64,000 bases of DNA from Candidatus Omnitrophota bacterium (GCA_016208765.1 JACQXK010000004.1:84243-148242), one strand, 5' to 3'. Shown: positions 1 to 59,746, numbered from the stretch's first letter. The notes: generated from the sequence alone by a model not told the origin. A program made the numbers and translations.

Positions 1-3025
<3,025 letters not shown>

Positions 3026-3039
3026 ATTTAATCAGCCGC

Positions 3040-3273
3040 TTATTTATAAATATCAGGATTTATTCCCAACTTCTTGATCTTTACGCGCATAGTATTACGA
3101 TTTATCCCCAATATCCTTGCTGCTTTTAATTGATTGCCAAAGGTGCGTTCTAAGGCATATTCAAATAAAGGTTTTTCAATTATATCTAAAATTGCGCGAT
3201 ATACAAAGCCTTTTTTTTCCTTTAACAGGGATTCTTCAATTTCAATTAATTTTTCTTTTAGTCCATCAACCAT
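3040..3273 (-). CDS. Fis-family / NtrC-C-terminal-type HTH DNA-binding mini-protein (77 aa)
   Basis: C-terminal motif GNQLKAARILGINRNTMRVKIKKLGI is the HTH_8 (Fis/NtrC) signature. The gene sits directly upstream of gltB. Confidence 0.7.
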   Translation of the reverse strand: MVDGLKEKLIEIEESLLKEKKGFVYRAILDIIEKPLFEYALERTFGNQLKAARILGINRNTMRVKIKKLGINPDIYK

Positions 3274-3436
3274 GGCATATCCTGCTTAAAGTTTAGGCAA
3301 AGGATTTGTTAAAAAATAGAGGCGTCCATAACAGCCTAAGGTTAAGCTTTTATGAACGCCCCTTTGCGTTTAGTCTTAGTTTAGCACAACTGCGTGCCTT
3401 ATATTACAAGTAAATAAATTTCTTTCTTGGTAACTA
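3274..3436 (-). promoter_or_regulatory. Leader of the fis-like/gltB operon: bipartite motif plus hexaloop hairpin (AACGC-AAAGGG-GCGUU)
   Basis: Plus-strand TACAAGTAAA at 3405-3414 and TGGTAAC at 3428-3434 (23-nt offset, identical to three other leaders). The minus-strand RNA carries an A1/G4 hexaloop hairpin and a U-rich tract. Confidence 0.45.
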
Positions 3437-5659
3437 CTACTTTATAAAAAGCATCTCGCGGTACTTCGGCAGGTCCCAATGCTCGTCTGAGACTACCATT
3501 TCCAGATCATCAACATGCTTACGAATGTGATCCATTAACGGCTTCATTTCTTTATAATATACTTCTGCCCGTTTCTCCTGCTCCATTAAAGATGCTTTCT
3601 CTAAAAGCTTCTTTAATACTCCGGCATTACGCCTTACATAATAAATCTTTGCAACCACCTCATCTAAATGGTCTTTTAGATCCTCAAGCGCCTTTGTATC
3701 AGGCTTTAAACCGGTTTGTTTCTTCAAATTTGCCAAATCAATCAGGTTATCAGCCAATAATTTCTGATACTCAAAGCCTGCCGGAGCAACGCTTGCATTT
3801 ACCATTTCAATTAAAGTGTTTGCCTCAATTTCAAGGGTCAGGTTATACATGTGAATCCAAATATGGTAACGCGCAACCAGCTCTTCCTTGGATAAAACTT
3901 TATATTTTTCAAAGAGGGCTATATTTTCCTTTTTAATAAAAGCCTCTAATGCCTCAAATGTAGCAGCAACATTAGGAAGCCCTCTTTTCGTTGCCTCTTT
4001 TAACCACTCCTCAGAATAATTATTTCCCTCAAAACGCACATCCTTGGTTTCTTTAACCACCTGTGCAATTACCTGCAATACCGCAGAATTAAAATCTTTA
4101 CCGCTTGCCTGCGCTTTTTTGATTTTATCAGCAACATAATCAAGGGAGTCGGCAATAATGGTATTAATTACCGTAATTGATGTAGAAATATTCTGGGATG
4201 AACCTACGGCGCGAAATTCAAATTTCTGCCCGGTAAAAGCAAAAGGAGAAGTGCGGTTCCTGTCGGTTGAATCCTTGCTAAAAGTAGGCAGCCGGGCAAT
4301 TCCAAAATCAATAATATCGCTTTTTGAGATCTGCTTCTTTGTGCCTTTTTCAATCGTATCCAAAACGCGCGACAGCTGATCCCCCAGGAAAACACTGATA
4401 ATTGCAGGAGGAGCTTCATTTGCTCCTAAACGATGCTCGTTTCCGGCAAGAGCGACACTTGCGCGCAAAAGATCGGCATGCAGATAAACCGCTCTTAAAA
4501 CCGCGGACAACACTGCTAAAAACTGCAGGTTATCTTCCGGCGTTTGCCCGGGATTAAGCAGGTTGTTTCCTTTATCATCAGCTAACGACCAATTCAAATG
4601 CTTTCCGCTGCCGTTTATCCCTGCAAAAGGCTTCTCGTGTAAGAGGCAAACTAAATTATGGCGCAAAGCGACTTTCTTCATCAATTCCATCAAAAGCTGG
4701 TTGTGGTCAGCAGCAATGTTAGATTCCTCAAAAATCGGGGCAAACTCATATTGATGAGGCGCAACTTCATTATGCCTGGTCATTACGGGAATTCCTAACT
4801 TATACGCTTCCTCAGCAACTTCAAACATAAAATTCAAAACCCGCTCTTTAATTGTCCCGAAATATTGATCCTCTAACTGCTGGCCTTTAGGAGATGCTGC
4901 TCCTACAAGCGTCCTTCCGGTAAGCAAAAGATCCTGCCTTAGGTTATAATAATTTTTATCAATCAGAAAATACTCCTGCTCAGGGCCGCAGGTTGAAAAA
5001 ATCTTTTTAATATCTTTATGCCCGAAAACTTCCAGCAAATTCTTGGCTGCCTTGTTTAAAGCCTCGTCGGAACGTAAAAGCGGCAGTTTCTTATCCAAGG
5101 CCTCACCGTGATAAGAAATAAATATTGTCGGAATACAAAGGGTTTTCCCTAACTTACTCTCAATGATAAATGCCGGGCTTGAGGGATCCCATGCAGTATA
5201 TCCTCTTGCTTCAAAAGTAGCACGGATACCACCGGAAGGAAATGAGCTTGCATCCGGTTCGCCCTGAATAAGCTTTGATCCGGAAAATTTTTCAATCACC
5301 TTGCCCGGGCCGGTAATAGAAATAAAACTATCGTGCTTCTCTGCGGTCAAGCCGGTCATCGGCTGAAACCAGTGTGTGTAATAAGTAGCCCCTTTTGAAA
5401 TTGCCCACTCTTTCATGGCGTTGGCAATCTCATTAGCCTGTTCTTTGGAAATTTGTTTGCCCTCAGACATCCACGTCTTAAATGCCTCAAAGGTTGCATT
5501 GGAAATATACTTTTGCATAGTTTCAATATTAAAAGTATTCTCTCCAAAGTAAGCGGATACTTTTTCCGGCAAGTCCACCGTTTCTATTTCTATGCTCTTT
5601 ATCTTGGTCAACAACTCCTGTCTGATACCCATAAAAACCTCCACATAGTTAATGCGCAC
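3437..5659 (-). CDS. glnN: Glutamine synthetase type III (GSIII)
   Basis: 740 aa, the typical GSIII length. Catalytic-domain motifs include MTRHNEVAPHQYEFAPIFEE and the NGSGKH region. The gene lies in a nitrogen-gene neighbourhood. Confidence 0.85.
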   Translation of the reverse strand: MRINYVEVFMGIRQELLTKIKSIEIETVDLPEKVSAYFGENTFNIETMQKYISNATFEAFKTWMSEGKQISKEQANEIANAMKEWAISKGATYYTHWFQPMTGLTAEKHDSFISITGPGKVIEKFSGSKLIQGEPDASSFPSGGIRATFEARGYTAWDPSSPAFIIESKLGKTLCIPTIFISYHGEALDKKLPLLRSDEALNKAAKNLLEVFGHKDIKKIFSTCGPEQEYFLIDKNYYNLRQDLLLTGRTLVGAASPKGQQLEDQYFGTIKERVLNFMFEVAEEAYKLGIPVMTRHNEVAPHQYEFAPIFEESNIAADHNQLLMELMKKVALRHNLVCLLHEKPFAGINGSGKHLNWSLADDKGNNLLNPGQTPEDNLQFLAVLSAVLRAVYLHADLLRASVALAGNEHRLGANEAPPAIISVFLGDQLSRVLDTIEKGTKKQISKSDIIDFGIARLPTFSKDSTDRNRTSPFAFTGQKFEFRAVGSSQNISTSITVINTIIADSLDYVADKIKKAQASGKDFNSAVLQVIAQVVKETKDVRFEGNNYSEEWLKEATKRGLPNVAATFEALEAFIKKENIALFEKYKVLSKEELVARYHIWIHMYNLTLEIEANTLIEMVNASVAPAGFEYQKLLADNLIDLANLKKQTGLKPDTKALEDLKDHLDEVVAKIYYVRRNAGVLKKLLEKASLMEQEKRAEVYYKEMKPLMDHIRKHVDDLEMVVSDEHWDLPKYREMLFIK

Positions 5660-5868
5660 TTACGCCATTCCACATAAGCGTAATGTGCCTGTTATTTGTT
5701 ATATTCTACTATATTTTCCAGAAAAAACAAAGGCGTTCTTTTTATTAAGAACGCCTGCGTTCAAATTCGTTGTGTTGGCACTGCAATGTACCATAGCATA
5801 ATTCCTGCTCTACTCTTATTACAAGTAAACTTGTATCTATTTTGGTAACAAACTTTTAGTGGAACTAA
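5660..5868 (-). promoter_or_regulatory. glnN 5' leader: putative promoter motif, ANTAR-type dual hexaloop hairpins and an intrinsic terminator (attenuator)
   Basis: Plus-strand motif TACAAGTAAA 5820-5829 / TGGTAAC 5843-5849. Minus-strand RNA: P1 UGGUAC-AUUGCA-GUGCCA (5776-5793); P2 GAAC-GCAGGC-GUUC (5749-5763), sharing GGCGUUC with the terminator GGCGUUCUU-AAUAAA-AAGAACGCC (5732-5755) followed by UUUGUUUUUU. Confidence 0.6.
5732..5755 (-). terminator. Leader intrinsic terminator (attenuator) upstream of glnN
   Basis: Perfect 9-bp stem GGCGUUCUU/AAGAACGCC with a 6-nt loop, followed on the minus-strand RNA by UUUGUUUUUU. Confidence 0.6.
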
Positions 5869-6117
5869 TTATCCAATAGCAAGAGAGCCTCTCTCCCCTG
5901 TGCGTATGCGCACGCATTCAGATAACTCCATAACAAATATCTTACCGTCTCCTGTTGAGCCGCTTTTAGCGCCGTTAATAATGGCGTTAATGGCTGGTTC
6001 AAGGAAATTATCATTTACAGCTATTTCAAGACGGATCTTACGCAGGAGATTACCTGTTTCTTTGGCTCCGCGATAAACCTCGGTAACACCCTTTTGCCGA
6101 CCATGGCCCAAGCACAA
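5869..6117 (-). CDS. glnK: PII nitrogen regulatory protein (GlnK/GlnB), N-terminally truncated copy 1; it starts at the T-loop and lacks about 34 N-terminal residues
   Basis: [17 protein letters not shown]...[23 protein letters not shown] aligns to PII residues ~35-112. No MKKIEAII-type N-terminus is present in any frame upstream. The 5' end overlaps the tail of the amtB1 ORF by 68 nt. Confidence 0.6.
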   Translation of the reverse strand: MCLGHGRQKGVTEVYRGAKETGNLLRKIRLEIAVNDNFLEPAINAIINGAKSGSTGDGKIFVMELSECVRIRTGERGSLAIG

Positions 6118-7246
6118 ATTTATAGATCACAATTGTCCCGACAAACGTAAAACCAACAGCAACCGCAACACCCAGCAATTGAATAAACAGTTGTTTTGGA
6201 TTCCCAAAAAACAATCCGTCAGCTCCGGCAGGGTTAATCGCTTTTGAAGCAAACAAACCTGTGGCAATGGTCCCTAATATCCCGCCTACACCATGCACGC
6301 CAAAGGCATCAAGAGAATCGTCATAATTAAACATTGGTTTAATCAGCGCAACGGAGATAAAACAAAAAATACTTGCCAAAACCCCGATGATCAAAGCAGA
6401 TAGCGGGCTGACAAAACCACAAGCAGGCGTAATAGTAGCTAAACCGGCAATTATTCCGGTGACAGTCCCAAAGACCGTAGGTTTTCCATTGCGGATCCAC
6501 TCAAGCACCGCCCAGCTTAAACCTGCGCTTGCAGCAGCGGTATTTGTAACCACAAATGCATTGGCTGCCAAGCCATTTGCCGCAAGAGCGCTTCCTGCGT
6601 TAAAACCAAACCATCCAAACCAGAGCAATGCTGTTCCCAAAACCACTAAGGGCAAATTATGCGGAGCTGGCAAATGATGATCCATATTCTTACGCTTACC
6701 TATAATTATTGCCGTAACTAAAGCTGTAATCCCGGCGCTGGTATGCACAACAATCCCTCCTGCAAAATCAAGAACGCCCAAATTCTTTAACCATCCTCCA
6801 TCACCCCAAACCCAATGACAAAGCGGATCATACACAAAAGTCGCCCAAAGAAGCGTAAACACCAAAAAAGCAGAGAATCTTATTCTCTCAGCAAAAGCAC
6901 CAATAATCAGAGCTGGAGTGATCACAGCAAACATTGATTGAAAAGACATAAAAGCAATATGAGGTATAGTTACGCCATACGCTGCATAAGGTTCTGTTCC
7001 TACTCCAATCAAACCCAACCACGATAAACCACCCCAGAAACCTTTTCCCGGAGCAAAAGAAAGGCTATAACCAAAGATTACCCATTGCACGCTTAAAAGG
7101 CATATTGCCACAAAACACTGCATCAACACACTCAAAACATTTTTTCGCCTGACCATCCCTCCATAGAAGAAAGCCAGACCCGGAGTCATCAGCAAAACCA
7201 GGGCTGTTGAAAACAAAACCCATGCCGTATCACCTGAATTAATCAT
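6050..7246 (-). CDS. amtB: Ammonium transporter AmtB, copy 1; its 3' end runs out of frame into glnK
   Basis: 398 aa with full Amt/MEP conservation (FFYGG, HNLP..., GFNAGSA). The C-terminal tail ...[19 protein letters not shown] is the glnK T-loop region read in the -1 frame. Confidence 0.85.
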   Translation of the reverse strand: MINSGDTAWVLFSTALVLLMTPGLAFFYGGMVRRKNVLSVLMQCFVAICLLSVQWVIFGYSLSFAPGKGFWGGLSWLGLIGVGTEPYAAYGVTIPHIAFMSFQSMFAVITPALIIGAFAERIRFSAFLVFTLLWATFVYDPLCHWVWGDGGWLKNLGVLDFAGGIVVHTSAGITALVTAIIIGKRKNMDHHLPAPHNLPLVVLGTALLWFGWFGFNAGSALAANGLAANAFVVTNTAAASAGLSWAVLEWIRNGKPTVFGTVTGIIAGLATITPACGFVSPLSALIIGVLASIFCFISVALIKPMFNYDDSLDAFGVHGVGGILGTIATGLFASKAINPAGADGLFFGNPKQLFIQLLGVAVAVGFTFVGTIVIYKFVLGPWSAKGCYRGLSRSQRNR

Positions 7247-7464
7247 AACCAGCCTCCTCCTTATTTGCCTTATCTAAAAAACAAAGGCGTCCTTTAAATA
7301 AAGAACGCCTGCGTTCAATTTATGCTGTAACTGCTTCCGCACTCCGACGTGCTTAAGCATAAATCCATTAAAGCTGAGTTATAAGAAAAATACCCAACTT
7401 TTCGGATTATTATAAGTACAAGTAAAGAATTGGCTGTTTTGGTAACCCTTTTTTATCCTTTTTT
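7247..7464 (-). promoter_or_regulatory. amtB1 5' leader: bipartite motif, hexaloop hairpin and terminator (ANTAR-type attenuator)
   Basis: Plus-strand TACAAGTAAA 7417-7426 / TGGTAAC 7440-7446. P2 palindrome gaacgcctgcgttcaa at 7304-7319 overlaps the terminator ggcgtccttt...aagaacgcc (7286-7310), which is preceded on the plus strand by aaaaaacaaa (a U-tract on the RNA). Confidence 0.55.
7286..7310 (-). terminator. Leader intrinsic terminator upstream of amtB1
   Basis: Stem GGCGUUCUUU/AAAGGACGCC followed by UUUGUUUUUU on the minus-strand RNA. Confidence 0.55.
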
Positions 7465-7713
7465 CTATCCTATTGCCATCACCCCCCTCTCCTCAGTACG
7501 TATACGTATGCATTCAGATAACTCCATAACAAATATCTTACCGTCTCCTGTTGAGCCGCTTTTAGCACCGTTAATAATGGCGTTAATGGCTGGTTCAAGG
7601 AAATTATCATTTACAGCTATTTCAAGACGGATCTTACGCAGGAGATTACCTGTTTCTTTGGCTCCGCGATAAACCTCGGTAACACCCTTTTGCCGACCAT
7701 GGCCCAAGGCCAC
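7465..7713 (-). CDS. glnK: PII nitrogen regulatory protein (GlnK), N-terminally truncated copy 2
   Basis: (IV)[19 protein letters not shown]...[14 protein letters not shown]. It begins 5 nt after the amtB2 stop and again starts at the T-loop. About 190 nt are ~98 % identical to copy 1. Confidence 0.6.
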
Positions 7714-7721
7714 AATACTAA

Positions 7722-8951
7722 TTATTCTAAAACAGTATACGCGCTTTCACGGTGCTGGGTAAGGTCTAAACCGATAACCTCATCCTTCTCTGATACCCTG
7801 ATACCAATAAACAGATCCACCAATTTATAAATAACAAAAGTTGTAACAGCAGTATAAACAATGGTAACAAGCACTGTTATTAACTGCACCAAAAATTGTT
7901 TTGGATTCCCAAAAAATAATCCGTCAGCTCCGGCAGGGTTAATTGCCTTTGAAGCGAAGAGCCCTGTTGCCAAAGCGCCCCAAATCCCACCCACACAATG
8001 CACGCCAAAAGCATCCAGCGCATCGTCATATCCTAATCTCGGCTTTATGATCGTTACTGCCACAAAACAAAACACGCTTACTAATAACCCGATCACAATT
8101 GCCGGCACCACCCCCACGTAACCGGCTGCAGGAGTAATTGCCACAAGCCCTGCTACTGCGCCGCTGACTGTTCCAAAAAGAGTAGGCTTACCATTACGCA
8201 ACCATTCAATCAGCGCCCAGGAAAGTCCTGCAGCAGCAGCCGCAGTATTAGTAACCACAAACGCGTTTACTGCCAAGCCATTTGCCGCAAGAGCACTTCC
8301 TGCGTTAAAACCAAACCATCCGAACCAAAGTAATGCCGTACCTAAAACTACAAAAGGCAAATTATGCGGAGCAGGCAAATGATGATCAAGATTTTTCCTG
8401 CGGCCGATTACAAGCGCTGTTACAATAGCTGCAATTCCAGCGTTAATATGCACAACTGTTCCGCCTGCAAAATCCAAAGCTCCTAAATTTCTTAAAAATC
8501 CTCCTATGCCCCACACCCAATGGCAAAGCGGATTATACACAAAAGTCGCCCAGAGAATTGTAAAAACTAAAAACGCCGAAAATTTCATCCTCTCGGCAAA
8601 AGCTCCAATAATAAGCGCCGGCGTAATAATTGCGAACATCGCCTGAAAGATCATAAATGCCTGATGAGGAATTGTTCCTGCATAATCTGCATACGGCTCA
8701 AGGCCCACGCCATTTAAAGCAAACCAACTAAATCCTCCCCAAAAGCCTTTTCCGGGAGCAAATGACAAGCTATAACCGAATAAAACCCATTGCAGGCTTA
8801 AAACACAAAGCACAATAAAACACTGCATCAGAACCCCGAGAATATTCTTGCGCCTGACCATACCCCCATAAAAAAATGCCAGGCCCGGCGTCATAAGCAT
8901 TACTAACGCCGTAGACATCAACACCCATGCTGTATCACCTGCATTAATCAT
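7722..8951 (-). CDS. amtB: Ammonium transporter AmtB, copy 2, with an intact C-terminal tail
   Basis: 409 aa, about 75 % identical to copy 1. It has the canonical cytoplasmic tail ...[26 protein letters not shown]. Confidence 0.9.
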
Positions 8952-8969
8952 CTCTTTCCTCCTTTTTGA

Positions 8970-9767
8970 TTAAAAATCCATATCCAGCTGAAAAGTAACT
9001 GTATTTCTTAAATTTTTATTATTGTAAATGTCGTAACCAAATATCGCGGAAATATTGTTTGTGAACTTCCATGAAAAACCAACGTTAAGCGCCCCATAAG
9101 AAGATTGCGTTCCCTGATAATCAACACACAGCCAAAGTTTATCAGATATTTCTGACATGGTGCGCTCCCAGGCAAATAGCGGCCCGATATTGTCCCGTTC
9201 AGAATCTTTATCCCTTAATAATTTGGCGTTACCGTTAAAATATCCGGCGGAGAATCTGCCCAAATTAAACTTGCCAATATTAATTGTTTTTGCCCCTCTA
9301 AGATACCAAACATTATTATTTGTTTTATTGCGTTTTGTGCCGACATCATACACGCCGATGGCAAATGCTGGCATATTCTTAAAATAAGCATCCTCAGGCA
9401 CAGCCGCTTTAAAATTAAAGTAAAACGGATATGTATCTAATGATGAACCAAATCCTTTCTTATAATCAAACCCTGTTTCAGCCATAATTTTCCCTAAAGG
9501 CTGCCAAACACGCCCCAATAAATTATCTTCAGGTTTGTCAGACAAAAGGCTGAACGTAGAGCCATAGACTTGCTGAATATATGTTTTTATTTCATTCTTG
9601 TCTTTGCTTCTTACCGGGAAATACAAATCAGAGCCGATATGTATTTTCTTATATGGCTGGATATCTGTAGATGGCGACCAGATCAAAGTTGTAGGCGTAG
9701 CGAAAACAATTGCCGCATTTAAAACAAAAAACATCAAACCAAGAATTATTACACCCGTTTTTTTCAT
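8970..9767 (-). CDS. Putative outer-membrane beta-barrel protein (signal peptide; C-terminal ...QLDMDF)
   Basis: N-terminal hydrophobic signal peptide, alternating beta-strand pattern and a C-terminal aromatic residue. It shares an operon with amtB2. Confidence 0.45.
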   Translation of the reverse strand: MKKTGVIILGLMFFVLNAAIVFATPTTLIWSPSTDIQPYKKIHIGSDLYFPVRSKDKNEIKTYIQQVYGSTFSLLSDKPEDNLLGRVWQPLGKIMAETGFDYKKGFGSSLDTYPFYFNFKAAVPEDAYFKNMPAFAIGVYDVGTKRNKTNNNVWYLRGAKTINIGKFNLGRFSAGYFNGNAKLLRDKDSERDNIGPLFAWERTMSEISDKLWLCVDYQGTQSSYGALNVGFSWKFTNNISAIFGYDIYNNKNLRNTVTFQLDMDF

Positions 9768-9966
9768 TTATTGCATCCTCCTTTTAAAATAAAAAGCGCC
9801 TTTCTATCCAACACTGGAAAAAGAAAGACGCCCGCGTCTTAAAACCACCCTATAAACAAAAAAGCGTTCTTTATAGAACGCCCATGTCTTATACACCTCT
9901 GTGTGTATTTGCTGCGAAATATTGCACTTACATCAATACAAGTAAAAACCCTCTTTATCTGGTAAC
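9768..9966 (-). promoter_or_regulatory. Leader of the OMP-amtB2 operon: bipartite motif, hexaloop hairpin and two tandem terminators
   Basis: Plus-strand TACAAGTAAA 9937-9946 / TGGTAAC 9960-9966. Hexaloop AGAC-AUGGGC-GUUCU. Terminator 1 gcgttctttatagaacgc at 9855-9883 and terminator 2 aagacgcccgcgtctt at 9816-9840, each followed by U-tracts on the RNA. Confidence 0.5.
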
Positions 9967-10521
9967 CTAATCCAGGTATTTTTTACACTTTCCCCTGATA
10001 CTTGCCATCATTTTCACTACGCGCACATGAGAAACTCCGCAGCATTTTCCGATTTCTCTTGTAGTCAGCCCCTCGGAAAATAACCTTAGAAGCTGTTTTT
10101 CCCGGGTTGTAAAACCGTTGTTATGAATAGTTTCAGCAAGTAATTTACTGTTTAAAGTATCAAGAAAATTATCCGCAGAGGTATCCCTAAGAAGCAAGGA
10201 CTCCTCAAAATTGTTCCCCTCCTGATTAACAATTGCCTCAATACTTACAAGCCTTGATTTATCTTTTATCTTACGTAAATAATTCCTTAAATGAAAATAG
10301 CAGCCCTGTAATACATAGCTATCGGTCTTATCTGTCAGCTTTCCGGATGAGTAATCCTGCCAAAGATGCACAAGCGCCTCCTGATAAAGATCGTCATCCC
10401 CAAGAAAACGGCAGTAGCCGTTTAATTTATAGGTAATCCGCCTTAAAACAGGAGAAATCTTCTTTACTATTTGTTCAAATTCCATACCCCTCATCCTTAT
10501 AGAAAACAAAAAAGCGCCCAT
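9967..10521 (-). CDS. RNA polymerase sigma factor, sigma-70 family (ECF-like, 184 aa)
   Basis: Region-2-like DDLYQEALVHLWQ and region-4 HTH LTTREIGKCCGVSHVRVVKMMASIRGK. Confidence 0.6.
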   Translation of the reverse strand: MGAFLFSIRMRGMEFEQIVKKISPVLRRITYKLNGYCRFLGDDDLYQEALVHLWQDYSSGKLTDKTDSYVLQGCYFHLRNYLRKIKDKSRLVSIEAIVNQEGNNFEESLLLRDTSADNFLDTLNSKLLAETIHNNGFTTREKQLLRLFSEGLTTREIGKCCGVSHVRVVKMMASIRGKCKKYLD

Positions 10522-10653
10522 AATCCATTGCTGGATAAAGGACGCCTCAGTCCAAAAAAAAGCCTTCGCGGCATATTAACTTTGCCTTGAAGACCTCTGT
10601 GTCTCTATTACATCACTGTAATTAATTAAAGTTTACCACAAAATACCTTCTTG

Positions 10654-11376
10654 TCAAGTTTTACCTTTAATATCTCTGGCTAAAATAATTGCCTCGGCTA
10701 TTTCGCGCATGGTTTTACGGGTGTCCATGCTTTGTTTCTGGATCAGGCGAAATGCCTCAGAAGAAGAAATATTGGCTTCCTGAGAAAGAATGTCTTTTGC
10801 GCGTTCAATAAGCTTACGTGTGGTCAGGGCTTCTTCGGCGCTTCGCGCACGCAGGTCAAGCTCGGCATTTTCAATTGCTACTGCCGCCTGATTTGCAAGT
10901 GCGGTTAAAACATCCATCTCCTGTTTGGAGAATTTATGTTTTTTAGATGTGTAACAGTTTAATACCCCGATTACTTTGGATTTAACCGATAGAGGAACGC
11001 ATGCCAAAGAAACCAGATTCTCAGCCTTTGCAATATCGCGGTTTAAATAACCCGCATCCTTACGCACATCCTCCACGTAAACCGCCTTGTTTTCCAAAGC
11101 AACAACTCCGGCAATCCCCTGGCCTAATTTGATATTTGGTTTTTTATTATATGCTTCTGAGATAGATTGTGTTGCCCGCACCACCAGTTCTTTTTTCTCA
11201 GGATCAAGCAGTAAAAGCGAGGAAACCTTGGAATTCATCACCTCGGCAGTGACCTGCACCACCAAACGCAGCAATTCATCCAAATACAAACCTGAAGTGA
11301 TCAGGTTAGCTATTTTGGAAAGCGCCTCAATCTGTTTAACATAAATTTGATAGTGCCGGGCTTTAGTAGTAGACAT
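10654..11376 (-). CDS. GAF-ANTAR transcription antitermination regulator
   Basis: N-terminal GAF-like sensor. The C-terminal ANTAR domain (...LTTRKLIERAKDILSQEANISSSEAFRLIQKQSMDTRKTMREIAEAII...) matches the AmiR/NasR family. Confidence 0.75.
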   Translation of the reverse strand: MSTTKARHYQIYVKQIEALSKIANLITSGLYLDELLRLVVQVTAEVMNSKVSSLLLLDPEKKELVVRATQSISEAYNKKPNIKLGQGIAGVVALENKAVYVEDVRKDAGYLNRDIAKAENLVSLACVPLSVKSKVIGVLNCYTSKKHKFSKQEMDVLTALANQAAVAIENAELDLRARSAEEALTTRKLIERAKDILSQEANISSSEAFRLIQKQSMDTRKTMREIAEAIILARDIKGKT

Positions 11377-11379
11377 AAT

Positions 11380-12537
11380 TTAACGCCTCTTTTCTAAAAA
11401 TATTTCCATGCGCTTTAACGCCTCTTTTAAATTATCAAAACTTGATGCGTAAGAAATGCGCACATAATTATCAAGTCCGCTGCCAAAGGCAGTGCCCGGG
11501 ACAACTGCTACCTTCTGCTCTTTTAACAAGCTTTGCGCAAAATCAATCGCATTCATTCCGGTTTTCTTTATTGAAGGAAAGGCATAAAAAGCCCCTTGAG
11601 GTTTATGGCAGGTCAAACCAATACGGTTTAAGCCGTCAATCACAAATTCCCGCCTTCTTTTATATTCACGCTTCATTTCTTCAACAAATCTTCTTCCTGA
11701 AACTATTGCCTCTGCTGCAGCCATCTGGGCTGTGATAGAAACACACATAATTGTATATTGATGTATTTTGGTCATTGCGGCAATAACCTCTTTCGGCCCG
11801 CAGGCAAAACCCACACGCCAGCCGGTCATAGCATAACTTTTGGAAAAACCATCCAGATAAACAGTGTTATCTATTGCTCCGGGCAAAGTAGCAAAATGCG
11901 TGTGATTAAAATCATAGGTCAGGTCGCAATAAACCTCATCGCAGATTGCCATAACTTTATGTTTCAATAATACCTTATTAATTTCATAAAGCTCTTTTCT
12001 TGTATAAGAAACACCCGTGGGATTTGAAGGATAATTTAAGATAATTGCCTTGGTTTTTTTGTCAATGTTCTTTTCCAGCTCTTGCGGCGTGATCTTAAAA
12101 CCGTTCTTTGCCGTATTAATATACACTGGGACGCCGCCTGCTAACTCGGTAACCGGCCCATAAGAAACATAGCTCGGCTGAGGGACAATCACCTTATCCT
12201 GCGGCTCAAGAATAGAACGCAAAACTAAATCCACTCCCTCGCTGACACCGACAGTAATTAAGATTTCCTCATCAGGGCAATATTTTAAGCCGCATTTATC
12301 TTTAAGGTAATTGCTGATACCTAATCTTAACTTATATAATCCTTTATTGGAAGTATAAGACGTAAATCCGCTTTCCAAAGAATAGATCCCTGCCTCACAG
12401 ATTGGCCAGGGGGTAACAAAATCAGGCTCCCCCACCCCTAAAGAAATAACATCCTTCATTCCGAGCACTAAATCAAAGAATGCACGGATTCCCGAAGGCT
12501 GCATTTCTTCCACTTTTTTAGAAATAATATTTCTCAT
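11380..12537 (-). CDS. Pyridoxal-phosphate-dependent aminotransferase, class I (aspartate/aromatic family)
   Basis: 385 aa with class-I fold motifs (SNPTG, the YSFSKSYAMTGWRVG Lys region). Confidence 0.75.
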   Translation of the reverse strand: MRNIISKKVEEMQPSGIRAFFDLVLGMKDVISLGVGEPDFVTPWPICEAGIYSLESGFTSYTSNKGLYKLRLGISNYLKDKCGLKYCPDEEILITVGVSEGVDLVLRSILEPQDKVIVPQPSYVSYGPVTELAGGVPVYINTAKNGFKITPQELEKNIDKKTKAIILNYPSNPTGVSYTRKELYEINKVLLKHKVMAICDEVYCDLTYDFNHTHFATLPGAIDNTVYLDGFSKSYAMTGWRVGFACGPKEVIAAMTKIHQYTIMCVSITAQMAAAEAIVSGRRFVEEMKREYKRRREFVIDGLNRIGLTCHKPQGAFYAFPSIKKTGMNAIDFAQSLLKEQKVAVVPGTAFGSGLDNYVRISYASSFDNLKEALKRMEIFLEKRR

Positions 12538-12565: not shown

Positions 12566-13066
12566 TTAATACGATATCGCTATCCTCTTATTCTCTTGCT
12601 TATGCTTTAGTATAACACCATCTTCTTTATATTTTTTCAACAAAAAATGCGTAACTGTCCCGCGCACATTCTCCAAACATGCCAGTTTTTCCGCAACAAA
12701 ACGCGAAACATCATGGATGGTCTTTCCCTCAATCACCACCAAAAGGTCATATGTCCCGGAAATTAAATAGCAGCTCGTTACCTCGGGAAAAGAATATATC
12801 CTCTCGGCGATCTTCTCAAAGCCCAGATCTTTCTGAGGAACAACTTTTACTTCAATAAGCGCACGGGCAAGAGAATCCTCCCTGCGCACCAATTCTTTAT
12901 TAATTACCGCCTTGTATTTAATGATAATCCCATTTTTCTCCAATTTCTTAATTTCATCTTTTACTGTTTGAGGCTTTAATTTTAGCATCTTGGCGATTTC
13001 TTCCGGAGTGATACGCGCGTCTTTTTCTAAGATCTCAATAATTTCATTCATTTTTAATCCTCCCAT
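12566..13066 (-). CDS. lrp: Lrp/AsnC-family transcriptional regulator
   Basis: 166 aa: N-terminal HTH (ILEKDARITPEEIAKMLKL...) plus a C-terminal RAM domain. Confidence 0.75.
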   Translation of the reverse strand: MGGLKMNEIIEILEKDARITPEEIAKMLKLKPQTVKDEIKKLEKNGIIIKYKAVINKELVRREDSLARALIEVKVVPQKDLGFEKIAERIYSFPEVTSCYLISGTYDLLVVIEGKTIHDVSRFVAEKLACLENVRGTVTHFLLKKYKEDGVILKHKQENKRIAISY

Positions 13067-13095
13067 AAAACTGAGTTACCTGTATCTGCGTAAAC

Positions 13096-13812
13096 TTAAA
13101 TTAAACAAATCCTCGGCCCCTGGCGCTTGTGTTCTGAAAGCCTGTGCATATTAACAACCTTAGAAACCTTTATTTTAGAAACAGAATGCCTTTTACCTTT
13201 AAACATACAATCCAGAATGTCATCCAACTCCGGATAAGTAATGCCCATCTCTTTTTCATCGGTCTGCCCCGGCCAAAGCCCTGCAGTAGGCGTCTTTTTA
13301 ATAATCTGCTCAGGGATCCCTAATTCTTTTGCCAATAACACAACCTGCTTTTTTAGCAACCCGCCGATAGGCAAGATATCGTTTGCTCCGTCGCCGTGCT
13401 TTGTAAAATATCCGACGCTTAATTCTGACTTATTGCCTGTGCCGGCGACTAAATAATTATATTTATTAGCAAAATAGTAAAGCGTGAGCATCCTCAGCCG
13501 CGGCTTAAGATTTGCCCGCGCCATAGGGCTTGCCTCTGGCAAAACTTTTGTCAAACTATCAAAAATATTTGATAAATCTACAGTCTTAGTTTGTATACCT
13601 AAAGTTTTTGCCAGGAACTTTGCATCAATTAAATCCTGCGGCTGACTATGGCATGGTAAAAATAGGCCTAAAACATTATTTTTCCCCGCCGCTTCTTTTG
13701 ATAAAGCTGCTACTACACTTGAATCTATCCCACCGGATAGGCCCATCACAATCCCCTTGGCCCCGGAAGATTTTACCTGCTTCTTTATCCAATTTATAAT
13801 TTTACTGCGCAT
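13096..13812 (-). CDS. nadE: NH3-dependent NAD+ synthetase
   Basis: PP-loop GLSGGIDSSVVAAL, 238 aa. Confidence 0.75.
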   Translation of the reverse strand: MRSKIINWIKKQVKSSGAKGIVMGLSGGIDSSVVAALSKEAAGKNNVLGLFLPCHSQPQDLIDAKFLAKTLGIQTKTVDLSNIFDSLTKVLPEASPMARANLKPRLRMLTLYYFANKYNYLVAGTGNKSELSVGYFTKHGDGANDILPIGGLLKKQVVLLAKELGIPEQIIKKTPTAGLWPGQTDEKEMGITYPELDDILDCMFKGKRHSVSKIKVSKVVNMHRLSEHKRQGPRICLI

Positions 13813-33924: not shown

Positions 33925-35160
33925 CTACCAAAGCTGGGCAAACATTTTCTGCATCACCAAACTTGCCGCGCCCAAAGCCACTGCATTCTCCCGCAAATTA
34001 GAATAAACAATCCTTAAATCATCGGTTACTTCTCTAAATGACCACTCTTTTACAGTTTCTCCCACTTTGTGCAAAAACGAGTCTCCTGCTTCTTCAAATC
34101 CTCCGCCAATCACTACTGCCTGCGGATTCAACAAGTTAACTAAGAAAGAAATTTTTATTCCCAGCCGCTTGGCAGCACTCTCAAGCGCAATATTGGCAAC
34201 TTCATCCCCTGAACGGGCAGCGATAAAAACGCTCTTTAAGTCAATATTATTTATATTACTGGAGGTAGTCTTAAAAAATTTATCCGCCTTAAGTTTATCT
34301 TTAGAAAGCATTGCCCTGACATCTTCCACAATCCCGATATCTAATTCCCAGCGTTTCAGAAAACAGGTATTTCCGGCGTTACAATTAAAATCATCCTGCT
34401 CTTTGTAATTATAAATAGACACCTCTCCGGCATACCCCTGGGCGCCCCGATACGCCTCGCCATTAATAATTATGCCGCAGCCTACCCCGGAAAACATATA
34501 GATCAGGTTTTTAAAATTTTGATCAAGCCCAAGCCAATACTCGCCGAAACAAGCGCTGGTGGCGTCATTCTCAATCAGGGCCGGGATGTTAAACTCTTTT
34601 TCAATTAAAGATTTTAAAGGCAAATCCACCGACGCATAAGTGTAATAGTGATCCATCTTCTGCGGCCAATGAATTGAACCGTCTGTTTTGTTAATTAAAC
34701 CCGCCATTCCCACGCCGATACCCTTTATATTAGAACTTTGCTCTTTGGACCTGCGCAGGATCTCGCGGATAATGTCAAAGAGGCATTCAGAAATTTCTTT
34801 AACTGAAGCGCGAGGCCGGGCAACTTGTGTCTTTGTAATAATATTGCCTTTAAGATCCAGCAAAAGCCCAACCATGCTCATCAGGTTAAGCCCTACCCCA
34901 ATCACATACCCTGCCTGCGGGTTCAAATCCAAAAGAACAGGCCTTCTTCCGCCTTCAGAAACATCTAACTCTTTCTCGTATACCAAATTGCGCTTGATGA
35001 ATTCGTCAACATAATTGGAAATGGTTACAACATTAATGCCCATTTCTTTAGAAATATCCGGCCTGCTGATAGGGCCGCGCCTGCGCAAGATCTCAAGTAT
35101 GTCAATATTGCGTCTTTCTTTTTCGCTTAAGTCTTCTTTCCAGAAATCTAAAGTCCGCAT
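33925..35160 (-). CDS. ROK-family transcriptional regulator (NagC/XylR-type)
   Basis: N-terminal wHTH (ILEILRRRGPISRPDISKEMGI) plus an ROK sugar-kinase-like domain with a Cys/His zinc motif. Confidence 0.75.
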   Translation of the reverse strand: MRTLDFWKEDLSEKERRNIDILEILRRRGPISRPDISKEMGINVVTISNYVDEFIKRNLVYEKELDVSEGGRRPVLLDLNPQAGYVIGVGLNLMSMVGLLLDLKGNIITKTQVARPRASVKEISECLFDIIREILRRSKEQSSNIKGIGVGMAGLINKTDGSIHWPQKMDHYYTYASVDLPLKSLIEKEFNIPALIENDATSACFGEYWLGLDQNFKNLIYMFSGVGCGIIINGEAYRGAQGYAGEVSIYNYKEQDDFNCNAGNTCFLKRWELDIGIVEDVRAMLSKDKLKADKFFKTTSSNINNIDLKSVFIAARSGDEVANIALESAAKRLGIKISFLVNLLNPQAVVIGGGFEEAGDSFLHKVGETVKEWSFREVTDDLRIVYSNLRENAVALGAASLVMQKMFAQLW

Positions 35161-45539: not shown

Positions 45540-48500
45540 TTAATTAAGCCACCATCTGCGCCTTAACCAATACGGCATTTGCCCAAATCCAAACGCATAG
45601 CTCTGAGAAAATGTATTAAGTAAACAGCCGTAATTTAAATTTTCATTGCTGTTTCCTTTCATACTTACGGCAGAGCTGGATTTATATGAATGTTTCCCGA
45701 TTTCAGATAGCAGCGCCTCTTGAATAGGAATTATATAGTCTTGATGCGTATATTCAGGAGACTGAGCAATCACGGTTAACTTTTGGCTAAATCTTGTTCT
45801 CTCAAAAAGTATTTTGATAGCGGTAACAATGCGTTCATTTAAGATATCGTTAAACCGTTCTCTGTTTCCACAAGAACTCAATATCCTGAAAGCCGGATCA
45901 ATGTAGCAATTATTTAGTAAAAAATAATCAATGTCAAAATCAAGTATTATATCCGGATAATCTTTTAAGTCGGAGAAATACGGAAGGTCATAAACATGGA
46001 TGACTCTTACATCAGGAATTAAACCTCTATTTTGTCTCCTTGCTTTTATGAGCAATTTCCGGACATTCTTTTGCTCTTTGGCTGGATTCATATAATGAGG
46101 AACAATCCAATACATCCTTGAAATAACCCCATGATAAAATAACGGCATTATCATAGAAGCGCAATCGTATTCAGACCACCAGTTTTGTATGGTATTTTGG
46201 CCGAGGCCATATATACGCGATGGCATACTCAAATCACTATGGGCATCAAAGTGGATTAATGTTGCTCCACGGGAAATTCTGCTTTTCAGCAAATACTCAA
46301 TTACTACGTTATACATCTGGCCGTGATCTACCACCAACCAAAGGCCATCATTGATCATTTTTACGCCTCTTAATATAACACGATCAAAACACTGCATCAT
46401 TGGAGCAAGCTTTACCGGTAGAAAAGTATGACTAACCTCATCAACTACAGCAACTTCAGGGCCGTTTCCTTCTTTCTTTATGGCGGAGCTGGAGTTACGC
46501 TGGAAGTGTCCCCTGTCTTCTGTCGCCGAGGAGGCGCCGCTTGTTAGCTTACCCACTGTCCCGATTGATTTGGAAACAGTTTCCGAGTTGTTCGGGAAAC
46601 TGGGCTCTTTTAGCACCGCCGAGGATGCACCCTCATCGGAATTAAATATTGTGTCCCTGGAATTAAACACTAACCTTATTGACATTCCTCCTGCCATACA
46701 AAGATATCTATATAAATAAAGAACGCCGTTATTCTCAGAATAATCGACTATCATCCCGGATAAATCCACGACATCGCCATTTTTATCCTTCGCATACCCC
46801 CTTATTACCAAACACGTCGGCTGACCTATTTCTTTTCGTGCCAAAAGCAGTTTACGCCGATACATCAGGTGTAAAGTTTCCTCAGTTTGCAACAGCAACA
46901 CTTGTGATAGAGTTTTAATCCTAAATATTTTATATGAACCATTATTAATTGCTTGAGCCCAAAACAATTCGGAGCGAAAACAGGCTGGATATAATAATGA
47001 GCTCCATAATCTGTTTCTGTCTATCCTTTTTGCATCGGCCCCTGCCTCACTTAAATCTACATCTTTAATTAAGGCCAATCGACTACCGCTACAAGCAATG
47101 GCAGAGCCGGAGCTATGCTGGAACAGCCCCCTGTCTTCTGCCGCCGAGGATGCGCCCCATCTTATGCGACCCACTATCCCGATTGATTTGGAAACAGTTT
47201 CCAAGTTGTTCGGGAAACTGGGCCCTTTTAGCACCGCCGAGGAAGCGCCACCGTTAGAATTAAATGTTGTATCCCCAGAATTACCACCAGAGTCCTCATC
47301 TATATACTCAAAAGCCGCATGTCTTATGGTTCTGCCGTTTTTGATCTCGGCAATCGGAATATCTTTGTAATCTTTAATATCAAAAGAAGTATTTACGCCT
47401 GATGATTTAATATGCCACTCCCTAAATGCATTCTCCACTAATCTATCAAGTTCCCCAAAAATTTGTGCTGCGGAAAAGTTTCCTTCTGTTAAACATCTTC
47501 GCTCGCCTTGCCTACAGATAGAGATACTAATAGGGTTTTTTTCAAAACTTGTGCGGACGATAACAATATCCTTGGCCATACCCAGGGATTCTACTATAGG
47601 AGTAGGGTTCCAAATGAACCCTATCTTTCTTAATCCCTCTAACTTAGTAGAAACAAATCTAGATTTACCAGTAGCACTCGTGTCTAATTCTGGATGCACA
47701 TCATCTATCCTCAACACTTTCTCATTTTTAGGATCTACAATCTGCTTTATTTTATTAGATAGATCTCCCAAAGAATAATTCTCGCCAACAACATTTACGA
47801 AGCATGGCATAGAACCTTCAAATTCTTTTATAAGCGAAGCTGCTAGGGCAGCGCAATCCCAAAGAGGAATAAAATTATAATACAGAGCGTTAGCATTTGG
47901 TGGCATTTTAAGAAAACTTCCTTCCAAAATATTCTTTATAAATTTTGACACTATGTCTATAGGTTTACCTTTTTTAAATAATGGAAAAAGGTTGCCCAAT
48001 CGCAAAACAACAGCCCTGAGTCCACTATAGTGCACCCTTCCAGCAATTGCATTTTCTATAATTATTTTACTTAATTCATATGGATGTTCAAGGTTATACC
48101 AACAATCACACTCACCCACTTTTTCCACTGTCTCTCTCTTACCATAAACCCTTAAAGAAGAAGTAAATACTAACCTTGTCGTTTTCATTAAATTCAAGTT
48201 TTTTAAAGCATCTAGAATATTAAAAGCCATTGCAATATTATTAGAAAAGATACTCCTAAATTCATCTTCGCTATAGCTGTTTTGTATTCGACTATCAGAA
48301 GCAAGATGATAAATAAAGCTCGGCCTTACCATACTCAATACTTTTTCCGTAGAAGCATAATCAGTTAAATCACAATGAACAATCTTTACCCTTCCTTCTT
48401 TTACCGCTCTTGAAAGACTACGGTTCAATGGTAAATCTGAAAGATAATCAACCCTGGAGGTGAGAACTGTTATGTCCTCTGCTACTGGATAATCAAGAAG

Positions 48501-48860
48501 TTGTGATAAAACCATAATGCCTAAATGCCCAAGCCCTCCAGTAATCAAAATCTTGTCTTTCTCTTTTCTAGATAAAGTATAGTCAGGCTTGCCTACTGAC
48601 TCTATAAGGTCAAATAATAACGACGCTCCACTCTTCTCGTCTTCCATATCAACATCCAAAGTTATTTTTTCCTTTTCTCCGGATAACGGCAACCATCGCT
48701 CTTCCCGGTCATCAATTTCCATGGCATCTGGAGATGCAAAAGGCAAAACCCCAAATTTTAAAAGCAAGAAAAATATGTCAGCCAACTGAACAAAATGCTT
48801 TCCTTCTAATAGATTACCCTTCAATCTCAATAATGGTATATAATCAACATCTCTTCGCAT
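45540..48860 (-). CDS. Giant multidomain protein (1106 aa): NAD-dependent epimerase/dehydratase, repeat, unknown domain, repeat, arginase/deacetylase-like domain
   Basis: Rossmann motif ILITGGLGHLG (nt ~47570-48545). C-terminal VVDHGQ...HFDAHSD. Two in-frame copies of the repeat family at 46462-46666 and 47098-47284. Confidence 0.6.
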   Translation of the reverse strand: MRRDVDYIPLLRLKGNLLEGKHFVQLADIFFLLLKFGVLPFASPDAMEIDDREERWLPLSGEKEKITLDVDMEDEKSGASLLFDLIESVGKPDYTLSRKEKDKILITGGLGHLGIMVLSQLLDYPVAEDITVLTSRVDYLSDLPLNRSLSRAVKEGRVKIVHCDLTDYASTEKVLSMVRPSFIYHLASDSRIQNSYSEDEFRSIFSNNIAMAFNILDALKNLNLMKTTRLVFTSSLRVYGKRETVEKVGECDCWYNLEHPYELSKIIIENAIAGRVHYSGLRAVVLRLGNLFPLFKKGKPIDIVSKFIKNILEGSFLKMPPNANALYYNFIPLWDCAALAASLIKEFEGSMPCFVNVVGENYSLGDLSNKIKQIVDPKNEKVLRIDDVHPELDTSATGKSRFVSTKLEGLRKIGFIWNPTPIVESLGMAKDIVIVRTSFEKNPISISICRQGERRCLTEGNFSAAQIFGELDRLVENAFREWHIKSSGVNTSFDIKDYKDIPIAEIKNGRTIRHAAFEYIDEDSGGNSGDTTFNSNGGASSAVLKGPSFPNNLETVSKSIGIVGRIRWGASSAAEDRGLFQHSSGSAIACSGSRLALIKDVDLSEAGADAKRIDRNRLWSSLLYPACFRSELFWAQAINNGSYKIFRIKTLSQVLLLQTEETLHLMYRRKLLLARKEIGQPTCLVIRGYAKDKNGDVVDLSGMIVDYSENNGVLYLYRYLCMAGGMSIRLVFNSRDTIFNSDEGASSAVLKEPSFPNNSETVSKSIGTVGKLTSGASSATEDRGHFQRNSSSAIKKEGNGPEVAVVDEVSHTFLPVKLAPMMQCFDRVILRGVKMINDGLWLVVDHGQMYNVVIEYLLKSRISRGATLIHFDAHSDLSMPSRIYGLGQNTIQNWWSEYDCASMIMPLFYHGVISRMYWIVPHYMNPAKEQKNVRKLLIKARRQNRGLIPDVRVIHVYDLPYFSDLKDYPDIILDFDIDYFLLNNCYIDPAFRILSSCGNRERFNDILNERIVTAIKILFERTRFSQKLTVIAQSPEYTHQDYIIPIQEALLSEIGKHSYKSSSAVSMKGNSNENLNYGCLLNTFSQSYAFGFGQMPYWLRRRWWLN
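46462..46666 (-). repeat. Full-length copy of the in-frame repeat (A-part + DR + palindromic core + DR + C-part)
   Basis: ccgtttccttctttctttatggcggagctggagttacgctggaagtgtcccctgtcttctgtcgccgaggaggcgcc...ggaaacagtttcc...caccgccgaggatgcaccctcatcggaattaaatattgtgtccc. Confidence 0.85.
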
Positions 48861-48910
48861 TAATTCGTTAAAGACATCCGGATTACTTGATATAGTTATA
48901 GTCTATGTTT

Positions 48911-59714: not shown

Positions 59715-59746
59715 TGCCGAAGAGGCAGGACCGTTTCCTTCTTTCT

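Follow-up and report, generated by a model that had tools for sequence, protein, structure and literature searches.

The stretch of DNA analyzed here, 64,000 nucleotides from a Candidatus Omnitrophota bacterium (GCA_016208765.1 JACQXK010000004.1:84243-148242; hereafter the window, with positions counted from its first letter), carries a cluster of nitrogen-assimilation genes in which a bipartite DNA motif recurs four times, one copy standing directly behind the gene for a small sigma factor, its proposed reader. Members of the Omnitrophota are abundant, hardly any have been cultured, and we know of nothing on gene regulation in this phylum; in the bacteria that have been studied, nitrogen assimilation is controlled through sigma-54 and NtrC or through repressor and activator proteins. 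Throughout the motif-bearing part of the window, genes lie on the minus strand only. In the direction of transcription they encode a GAF-ANTAR RNA-binding antiterminator (10654-11376), a 172-amino-acid (aa) protein of the sigma-70 family with sigma2 and sigma4 domains, of the size of the extracytoplasmic function (ECF) sigma factors (9967-10485), a porin-like protein of 265 aa with no Pfam match (8970-9767), AmtB (7722-8951) and a truncated P-II protein (7465-7713), a second AmtB (6050-7246) and a second truncated P-II (5869-6117), a type III glutamine synthetase (GS III; 3437-5632), a 77-aa mini-protein with a Fis/NtrC-type helix-turn-helix (HTH; 3040-3273), and the large subunit of glutamate synthase, GltB (1-3025), which runs off the window and, following the annotation of two related contigs (L001 and L002), is the last gene of the Fis-HTH unit.

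On this coding strand the motif reads GTTACCA-N13-TTTACTTGTA (on the plus strand, TACAAGTAAA-N13-TGGTAAC), and it has exactly four perfect matches in the window, all inside the nitrogen cluster and none elsewhere: at 3405-3434, upstream of the mini-protein and gltB; at 5820-5849, upstream of the GS III gene; at 7417-7446, upstream of the second amtB/P-II unit; and at 9937-9966 (GTTACCA at 9960-9966, 13 nucleotides (nt) of gap, TTTACTTGTA at 9937-9946), directly after the stop codon of the sigma gene, where it is proposed to drive the porin-like, amtB and P-II genes. These are the four sites listed in an initial annotation of this DNA, and an exact search finds each of them again. When up to three mismatches are allowed, a single further match appears, at 34380-34409, inside an open reading frame (ORF) and with three mismatches, which is compatible with chance: matches averaged 0.22 over 100 shuffles, none of which gave as many as five, while the arithmetical expectation for 17 specified bases in 64 kb is about 1e-5. 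From the stop codon of the preceding gene to the start of a copy there are 0-19 nt. The distance to the next start codon, given initially as 150-200 nt, is roughly that, the actual values being 131, 187, 170 and 169 nt from the downstream end of the motif and 161-217 nt from its upstream end.

The motif is conserved across the Omnitrophota, ahead of genes for ammonium uptake and for glutamine and glutamate synthesis. Our claims on frequency rest on two sets of loci anchored on the sigma gene (L001-L007 and L128-L207); the loci L008-L127 were chosen by the motif itself and are therefore biased in this respect. The first anchored set comprises seven contigs with sigma homologues of 53-84% identity, fetched irrespective of the motif, and all seven possess one to four copies, with at most two mismatches and a 13-nt gap, the first copy being found 0-88 nt past the sigma stop codon. 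The gene order is shared as well, the sigma gene being followed by porin-like, amtB or hybrid-cluster genes and then by amtB/P-II units, with glutamine synthetase and Fis-HTH/gltB genes in most of them. The second set comprises 80 metagenome loci selected by sigma homology alone (49-62% identity), of which 78 could be tested. In 68 of the 78 the motif directly follows the sigma gene, at a median of about 5 nt from the stop codon and with a spacing that is always 13 nt, while in control windows from the same loci nearly all best matches were no better than 5-9 mismatches. In the unbiased logo built from these 68 unique sites TTACC and ACTTGTA are 100% conserved, the counts at the remaining positions are 67/68 for G1, 66/68 for A7, 67/68 for T23, 65/68 for T22 and 57/68 for T21, the boxes are 97-100% conserved, and the spacer is unconstrained except for A at 8-10 and T at 18-20. 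On these counts, the functional core of the motif is GTTACC-N16-TACTTGTA. It stays unchanged even where the identity of the sigma protein drops to 32-38%. Apparent variants with 12- or 14-nt spacing are merely shifted re-readings of 13-nt sites, and the offset of 23 nt between the starts of the boxes, noted initially for the window and equal to the 13-nt gap, holds without variation in about 240 further instances from other genomes.

When 185,579 genomes, one per species and 596 Gb in all, were scanned for the exact pattern, at least 120 stretches matched. Those listed are almost all from Omnitrophota or from loosely labelled contigs of metagenome-assembled genomes (MAGs) with the same gene content, along with eight obvious chance matches (in Flavobacterium, Selenomonas, Rothia, Paenibacillus and others); by arithmetic, about 70 chance matches, scattered across all phyla, are expected over the whole collection. 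Some loci that contain both the sigma gene and the motif carry the labels of other phyla: L062 is assigned to Ca. Geothermocultor (Actinomycetota), L100 to Proteobacteria, L103 to Firestonebacteria, L117 to Patescibacteria, L027, L098 and L101 to Elusimicrobia, L065, L110, L111 and L118 to a 'delta proteobacterium', and many others to 'Planctomycetales'. These could be mislabelled or misbinned Omnitrophota contigs, or they could represent a true spread beyond the phylum.

As to the genes marked by the motif, among the matches listed 162 of the 167 non-chance instances have a co-oriented ORF at most 450 nt away. The downstream gene encodes a glutamine synthetase in 45 of the 167 (by BLAST to the GS III of the window, many GS I included), with a further cluster of GS I, not matched by that BLAST, in seven. 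AmtB follows in 24 instances, P-II in 11 and the Fis-HTH/gltB unit in 12, while outer-membrane functions are represented by porin-like proteins (17 instances), Gcw_chp-type outer-membrane proteins (19) and BBP2 porins (5), and rarer targets by a class I glutamine amidotransferase (GATase; 2), the hybrid-cluster protein (2) and NifH (1). The single nifH instance is in L101, a contig labelled Elusimicrobia, where the motif lies about 274 nt upstream of the gene; the hybrid-cluster (Prismane) protein is preceded by the motif in L007 and L008, and in L027 the motif stands ahead of a DsrE-like gene. With extra genes such as nifH and the hybrid-cluster gene marked in some lineages, the regulon extends beyond what is seen in the window, and the motif flags nifH, porins and the hybrid-cluster protein as nitrogen-regulated.

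In the window, the leader behind each motif copy contains hairpins and a terminator. Leader 1 (3274-3404) has its P1 hairpin starting 7 nt after the motif; leader 2 (5633-5819) contains P1 GGTACattgcaGTGCC, P2 GAACgcaggcGTTC and a terminator; leader 3 (7247-7416) contains hexaloop hairpins and a terminator; and leader 4 (9768-9936) contains two tandem modules of hexaloop hairpin and terminator. A fifth leader, that of the sigma gene itself (10486-10629), has the hairpins AGACacagagGTCT and GGACtgaggcGTCC, the second overlapping the terminator. The target of ANTAR proteins has been described as two hexaloop hairpins, with A1 and G4 in the loop, the second overlapping an intrinsic terminator (PMC3369931), and when folded, all five leaders of the window are of this type; what the initial annotation had called attenuator leaders, just downstream of the motif, are thus dual-hairpin antiterminators, and the GAF-ANTAR protein, whose gene is syntenic in L001, L002, L003 and L004, is the proposed nitrogen sensor acting on all five. 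The same arrangement is found well beyond the window. A hexaloop hairpin (loop G4, mostly A1) lies downstream of the motif in 148 of 166 unique instances versus 14 of 166 after shuffling, and at least two such hairpins are present in 152 of 242 instances versus 5 of 242, with a T-run following in 141 of the 152; the second loop usually ends in GGC, and the 3' arm of the second hairpin is the 5' arm of the terminator. This ANTAR layer is of a known kind, already tied to nitrogen genes (PMC3369931).

The hairpins also bound the start of transcription. In none of the 166 unique instances does the first hairpin have its 5' arm starting earlier than motif position 37, that is 7 nt past the motif, and in 64 of them the arm begins at 37-46. 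Because ANTAR hairpins must lie in the transcript, transcription should start within about 7 nt after TACTTGTA, and TACTTGTA and GTTACC would accordingly fall near -10 and -35, so that the position of the boxes is consistent with those of a promoter. A purine occupies position 38 in 84% of instances, and an A-tract lies 3-7 nt upstream of GTTACC. No other promoter was recognized: a consensus scan of the four motif-bearing intergenic regions finds no minus-strand sigma-70 promoter (TTGACA-N16-18-TATAAT), sigma-54 elements (TGGCAC-N5-TTGC; GG-N10-GC) are absent on either strand of the five intergenic regions, and the intergenic regions scanned contain no site for NtcA (GTA-N8-TAC), CRP/FNR (TGTGA-N6-TCACA; TTGAT-N4-ATCAA) or TnrA/GlnR (TGTNA-N7-TNACA), in agreement with the initial annotation, which had noted no resemblance to any of these regulators' consensus sequences. 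Two weaker promoter candidates were discarded. One is TTTACT as a -35 element with a -10 element 17 nt later, ruled out as positions 44-49 are unconserved; the other is the weakly conserved T35-R36-N-A38-A39 as a -10 element, ruled out as the resulting start at about 47 would cut off the hairpins that begin at 37-41 (48 instances), and this segment fits better, judging from its position, as the region of the start site. The P1 hairpins at 3365-3378 and 7339-7352 (minus strand) read GCAC-N6-GTGC in DNA, like NtrC-type half-sites, and an NtrC-like HTH mini-protein is encoded in the cluster. As NtrC-like DNA sites these palindromes were rejected: the stems differ between leaders (GGTAC/GTGCC, ACAC/GTGT, AGAC/GTCT), and this variation favours an RNA structure.

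The copies, all of which start 0-19 nt past a stop codon, have no terminator in between and would be transcribed by read-through; a role at the RNA level, where a read-through transcript might be processed or bound by a protein at the motif, or one as a recombination or cassette boundary, has therefore to be considered. We regard it as very improbable. Two invariant boxes, a spacer fixed in length and free in sequence, and the absence of covariation characterize the contact of a protein with DNA over two turns of the helix; no Rfam family matches the window at the gathering threshold, nor the region 3200-10700 even at E<=1; the orientation of the motif is fixed relative to the downstream genes; and the gene order is stably syntenic across the genomes of L001-L007, with no sign of mobility.

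The gene for the sigma protein is preceded by a promoter of a different kind. Located at 10630-10657 (minus strand), it reads TTGACA-16-TAAACT with a TG upstream and is of the canonical housekeeping type. Of 61 sigma loci, 28 show the same arrangement, TTGACA-N14/15-TGTGnTAnACT, ahead of the sigma gene, and downstream of it come two conserved ANTAR hairpins, AGACannGanGTCT and GGACtaaGGCGTCC, and then a terminator. Its recurrence indicates that Omnitrophota use ordinary sigma-70 promoters, and this extended -10 promoter provides a first look at the housekeeping promoters of the phylum. An ordinary promoter on the sigma gene and a special motif on the targets would be the usual hierarchy, from the housekeeping sigma through an alternative sigma to its regulon. 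This contrast bears directly on the proposal that the motif is itself an unusual promoter of the housekeeping sigma, held invariant by an activator or repressor encoded elsewhere, with the adjacent sigma factor controlling something else. TTACCA does agree with TTGACA at four of six positions, TGTAAT/TGTAWT is near TATAAT, and the link between sigma factor and motif is solely one of adjacency. However, the spacing from TTACCA to TGTAWT would be 19 nt, the consensus scan rejects the motif as a sigma-70 promoter yet calls the near-perfect one before the sigma gene, 17 invariant positions in the face of sigma divergence to about 32% identity are typical of alternative-sigma promoters, and no other regulator gene is consistently linked to the motif in L001-L007. 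We thus consider a housekeeping promoter improbable.

The assignment of the 172-aa protein to the sigma factors has multiple lines of support. It matches TIGR02937, the NCBIfam model of the sigma70-ECF superfamily, over its full length, with 49.4 bits versus a cut-off of 42.9, and many of its homologues have Pfam matches to Sigma70_r2, Sigma70_r4 or ECF. No NCBIfam subfamily was matched by the protein. A profile of the family matches FliA (8.6e-8) and SigH in searches of PDB. The AlphaFold (AF2) model, with a predicted confidence (pLDDT) of 75, consists of two helical domains and a disordered linker, and the top Foldseek matches to it are all sigma factors, including the ECF factors SigL, SigH, AlgU and RpoE. 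The invariant columns of the family fall in sigma4 at its recognition helix (R143, H153, V154) and in sigma2 at the segment SY-LQGCYFHL-NY-R (Y57-R71), so that invariant DNA-reading segments match an invariant target motif. The ECF-like sigma gene that the initial annotation placed at 9967-10521 therefore stands as to family; its start does not, the protein beginning with MEFEQ at 10485 and being identical to a 172-aa protein in the database. In the window and in L001-L007, the sigma gene has as its upstream neighbour a gene for GAF-ANTAR, for NadE or for a Glu_synthase-domain protein, and as its downstream neighbour one for a porin-like protein, AmtB, the hybrid-cluster (Prismane) protein or a permease.

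The initial annotation had left two readers in contention, the adjacent sigma factor and the Fis-like mini-protein encoded at 3040-3273. The latter does possess an HTH domain of the predicted type (HTH_8) and is encoded inside the regulon, in a unit itself preceded by the motif; it is conserved at least as well as the sigma factor (933 homologues with 60-95% identity, all named ones being from Omnitrophica), and an invariant site would suit so conserved a binder. If the motif were its operator, with the protein acting as activator or repressor and with or without an alternative sigma factor, a dyad would be anticipated, Fis/NtrC HTH domains binding inverted repeats as dimers, but the boxes form none: the reverse complement of box 2 is TACAAGTAAA, as against GTTACCA in box 1. 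Moreover, the boxes occupy the required -35 and -10 positions with no other promoter element present, and were they an operator and no more, the units would have no promoter; in position the motif goes with the sigma gene (at the 68 of 78 loci), not with the Fis-like gene, itself one of the targets, at the cluster's end. We thus view the second proposal of the annotation, that of a Fis-like binding site, as unlikely, while the mini-protein may have a co-regulatory or modulatory role. The phyletic distribution was of no use in separating the two proteins, both being phylum-wide. The Fis-like protein occurs in two sizes, of about 77 and about 125 aa, the longer form having an N-terminal extension (L004, L005 and many homologues).

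We therefore favour the first proposal and, from the sequence comparisons, consider it probable: the motif would be the promoter of a dedicated ECF-like sigma factor, the product of the neighbouring gene, and ANTAR antitermination would control whether that factor is made. In support are boxes spaced and placed like -35 and -10 elements, the limit that the hairpins set on the start site, the absence of other promoter consensus sequences, the coupling of the motif to the sigma gene, and the contrast with the sigma-70 promoter of that gene. Known pairs of ECF (group 4) sigma factors and promoters include E. coli sigmaE, B. subtilis sigmaW, sigmaX and sigmaM, and M. tuberculosis SigL and SigH. 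Like these, the proposed pair combines a small protein of sigma2 and sigma4 with a bipartite promoter that is highly conserved and whose spacer keeps strictly to about 16 bp; its regulon is compact and coherent, and the sigma gene is physically linked to its targets. Several points set it apart from the known pairs or weigh on the other side. The -35 box has TAC in a place where ECF promoters, as we take it, typically have an AAC core, and the -10 box, (T)TACTTGTA, is unlike any ECF -10 element known to us; by general knowledge of the ECF consensus, one would look for AAC and a short -10 of the CGT or TC type, and GTTACC and TACTTGTA are found instead. ECF sigma genes usually have an anti-sigma neighbour and are autoregulated, whereas no anti-sigma gene adjoins the sigma gene in the window or in L001-L007, and the motif is found upstream of the sigma gene only once in 61 loci, the gene having a sigma-70 promoter and an ANTAR attenuator in place of autoregulation. 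The regulon is one of cytoplasmic nitrogen assimilation and not of envelope or stress functions. The superfamily score of the window protein is only just above the threshold, and its only Pfam match is to a GerE-like HTH. No adjacent motif is present at 10 of the 78 sigma loci, four of which have a motif 2-5 kb downstream, and, with the Fis-HTH mini-protein equally conserved throughout the phylum, co-occurrence cannot separate the two candidates.

If the sigma factor does read the motif, the following circuit can be proposed. The sigma gene would be transcribed from its sigma-70 promoter, with an ANTAR-controlled terminator in its leader, and the GAF-ANTAR protein would sense the nitrogen status of the cell, being active presumably under nitrogen limitation; the terminator of the sigma leader would then be suppressed and the sigma factor made. 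RNA polymerase with the 172-aa sigma would read GTTACC-N16-TACTTGTA, with GTTACC as the -35 element, TACTTGTA as the -10 element, a 16-bp spacer ending in a T-tract, an A-rich, UP-like tract just upstream of GTTACC, and a transcription start some 5-8 nt past TACTTGTA. It would thereby fire the four motif promoters, those of the porin/amtB/P-II, amtB/P-II, GS and Fis-HTH/gltB units, and each target transcript would have to pass a second ANTAR-controlled terminator, making up a feed-forward AND gate. As the motif directly follows the previous stop codon, the leader terminators would also end the upstream units, and under antitermination the whole cluster might be read through. What the sequences show directly is how the motif is conserved and built, which genes it accompanies, the fold and family of the sigma protein, the ANTAR-type leaders and the sigma-70 promoter of the sigma gene; that this sigma binds the motif, where precisely transcription starts and what signal is sensed are inferences from them. 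Taken as a whole, this two-tier circuit, with an ECF-like sigma that has no anti-sigma, is under ANTAR control of its synthesis and alone reads the promoter ahead of every assimilation unit, each unit gated again by the same ANTAR protein, seems to us about evenly poised between right and wrong. A literature search on Omnitrophota sigma and ECF factors, on ECF factors in a nitrogen context, on the motif, and on ANTAR combined with sigma factors, incomplete in coverage, retrieved no description of the motif, of a role for this sigma family or of an ANTAR-controlled sigma gene.

ANTAR regulons for nitrogen metabolism are exemplified by EutV, NasR and AmiR, and others have been predicted in Desulfotomaculum and Pelobacter (PMC3369931). 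The leaders described here resemble those in their dual hexaloops, in the overlap with the terminator, in the nearby ANTAR gene and in their placement upstream of genes for P-II, AmtB, glutamine synthetase, glutamate synthase and nitrogenase (PMC3369931). In contrast to them, the sensor domain here is GAF rather than a receiver or a NIT domain, and the ANTAR layer appears to be laid on top of a dedicated promoter and sigma factor, the sigma gene itself being an ANTAR target, a coupling that is not in PMC3369931. With the sigma-54/NtrC, NtcA and TnrA/GlnR systems, as generally known, the present one shares the principle of a single conserved DNA signal for the glnA, amtB-glnK and gltB units; it differs in that the signal has the -35/-10 geometry of the sigma-70 family, not a -24/-12 promoter or a palindromic operator, and the only NtrC-like remnant here is the 77-aa HTH protein.

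The 17-position signal thus represents a testable regulatory code that marks the nitrogen regulon throughout a phylum and that can be used to annotate regulons in MAGs, and the sigma factor is a candidate for one dedicated to nitrogen assimilation, its level apparently set by ANTAR antitermination and not by an anti-sigma, which amounts to a feed-forward design. If true, a new kind of master regulator would join sigma-54/NtrC, NtcA, TnrA/GlnR and AmtR in the control of nitrogen, and sigma factor and promoter would form a naturally very stringent, potentially orthogonal pair. Such a pair lends itself to tests in E. coli that require no culture of Omnitrophota, and may be of use as an orthogonal expression switch.

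Some further features of the cluster and of the window are of note. Both P-II genes have 82 codons and are without the first 31 or so codons when compared to the 113-aa orthologues of L001, a relative with 84% identity; the two are broken at the same point (…LGHGRQKG), and the amtB gene of the first copy is without its 3' end. Either the assembly has collapsed between two near-identical amtB/P-II repeats or the paired deletion is real. Upstream of the GAF-ANTAR gene lies an aminotransferase gene (11380-12537, minus strand), and just upstream of the aminotransferase, GAF-ANTAR and sigma genes are those for an AsnC-type regulator and NAD synthase (nadE; 12566-13812, minus strand), an arrangement also conserved in L001 and L004. 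In L003, L005 and L006 nadE directly abuts the sigma gene, and it may be part of the same nitrogen module. The first gene after the sigma gene usually encodes an outer-membrane protein with a signal peptide, in some cases a Gcw_chp protein or a BBP2 porin (L096, L011, L107), which suggests a channel through the outer membrane, regulated by nitrogen, that would admit ammonium or some other source of nitrogen. Far from the cluster, at 45540-63982 (minus strand), the window contains three very large ORFs in succession (1106, 3014 and 1411 aa), with one of 613 aa on the same strand.

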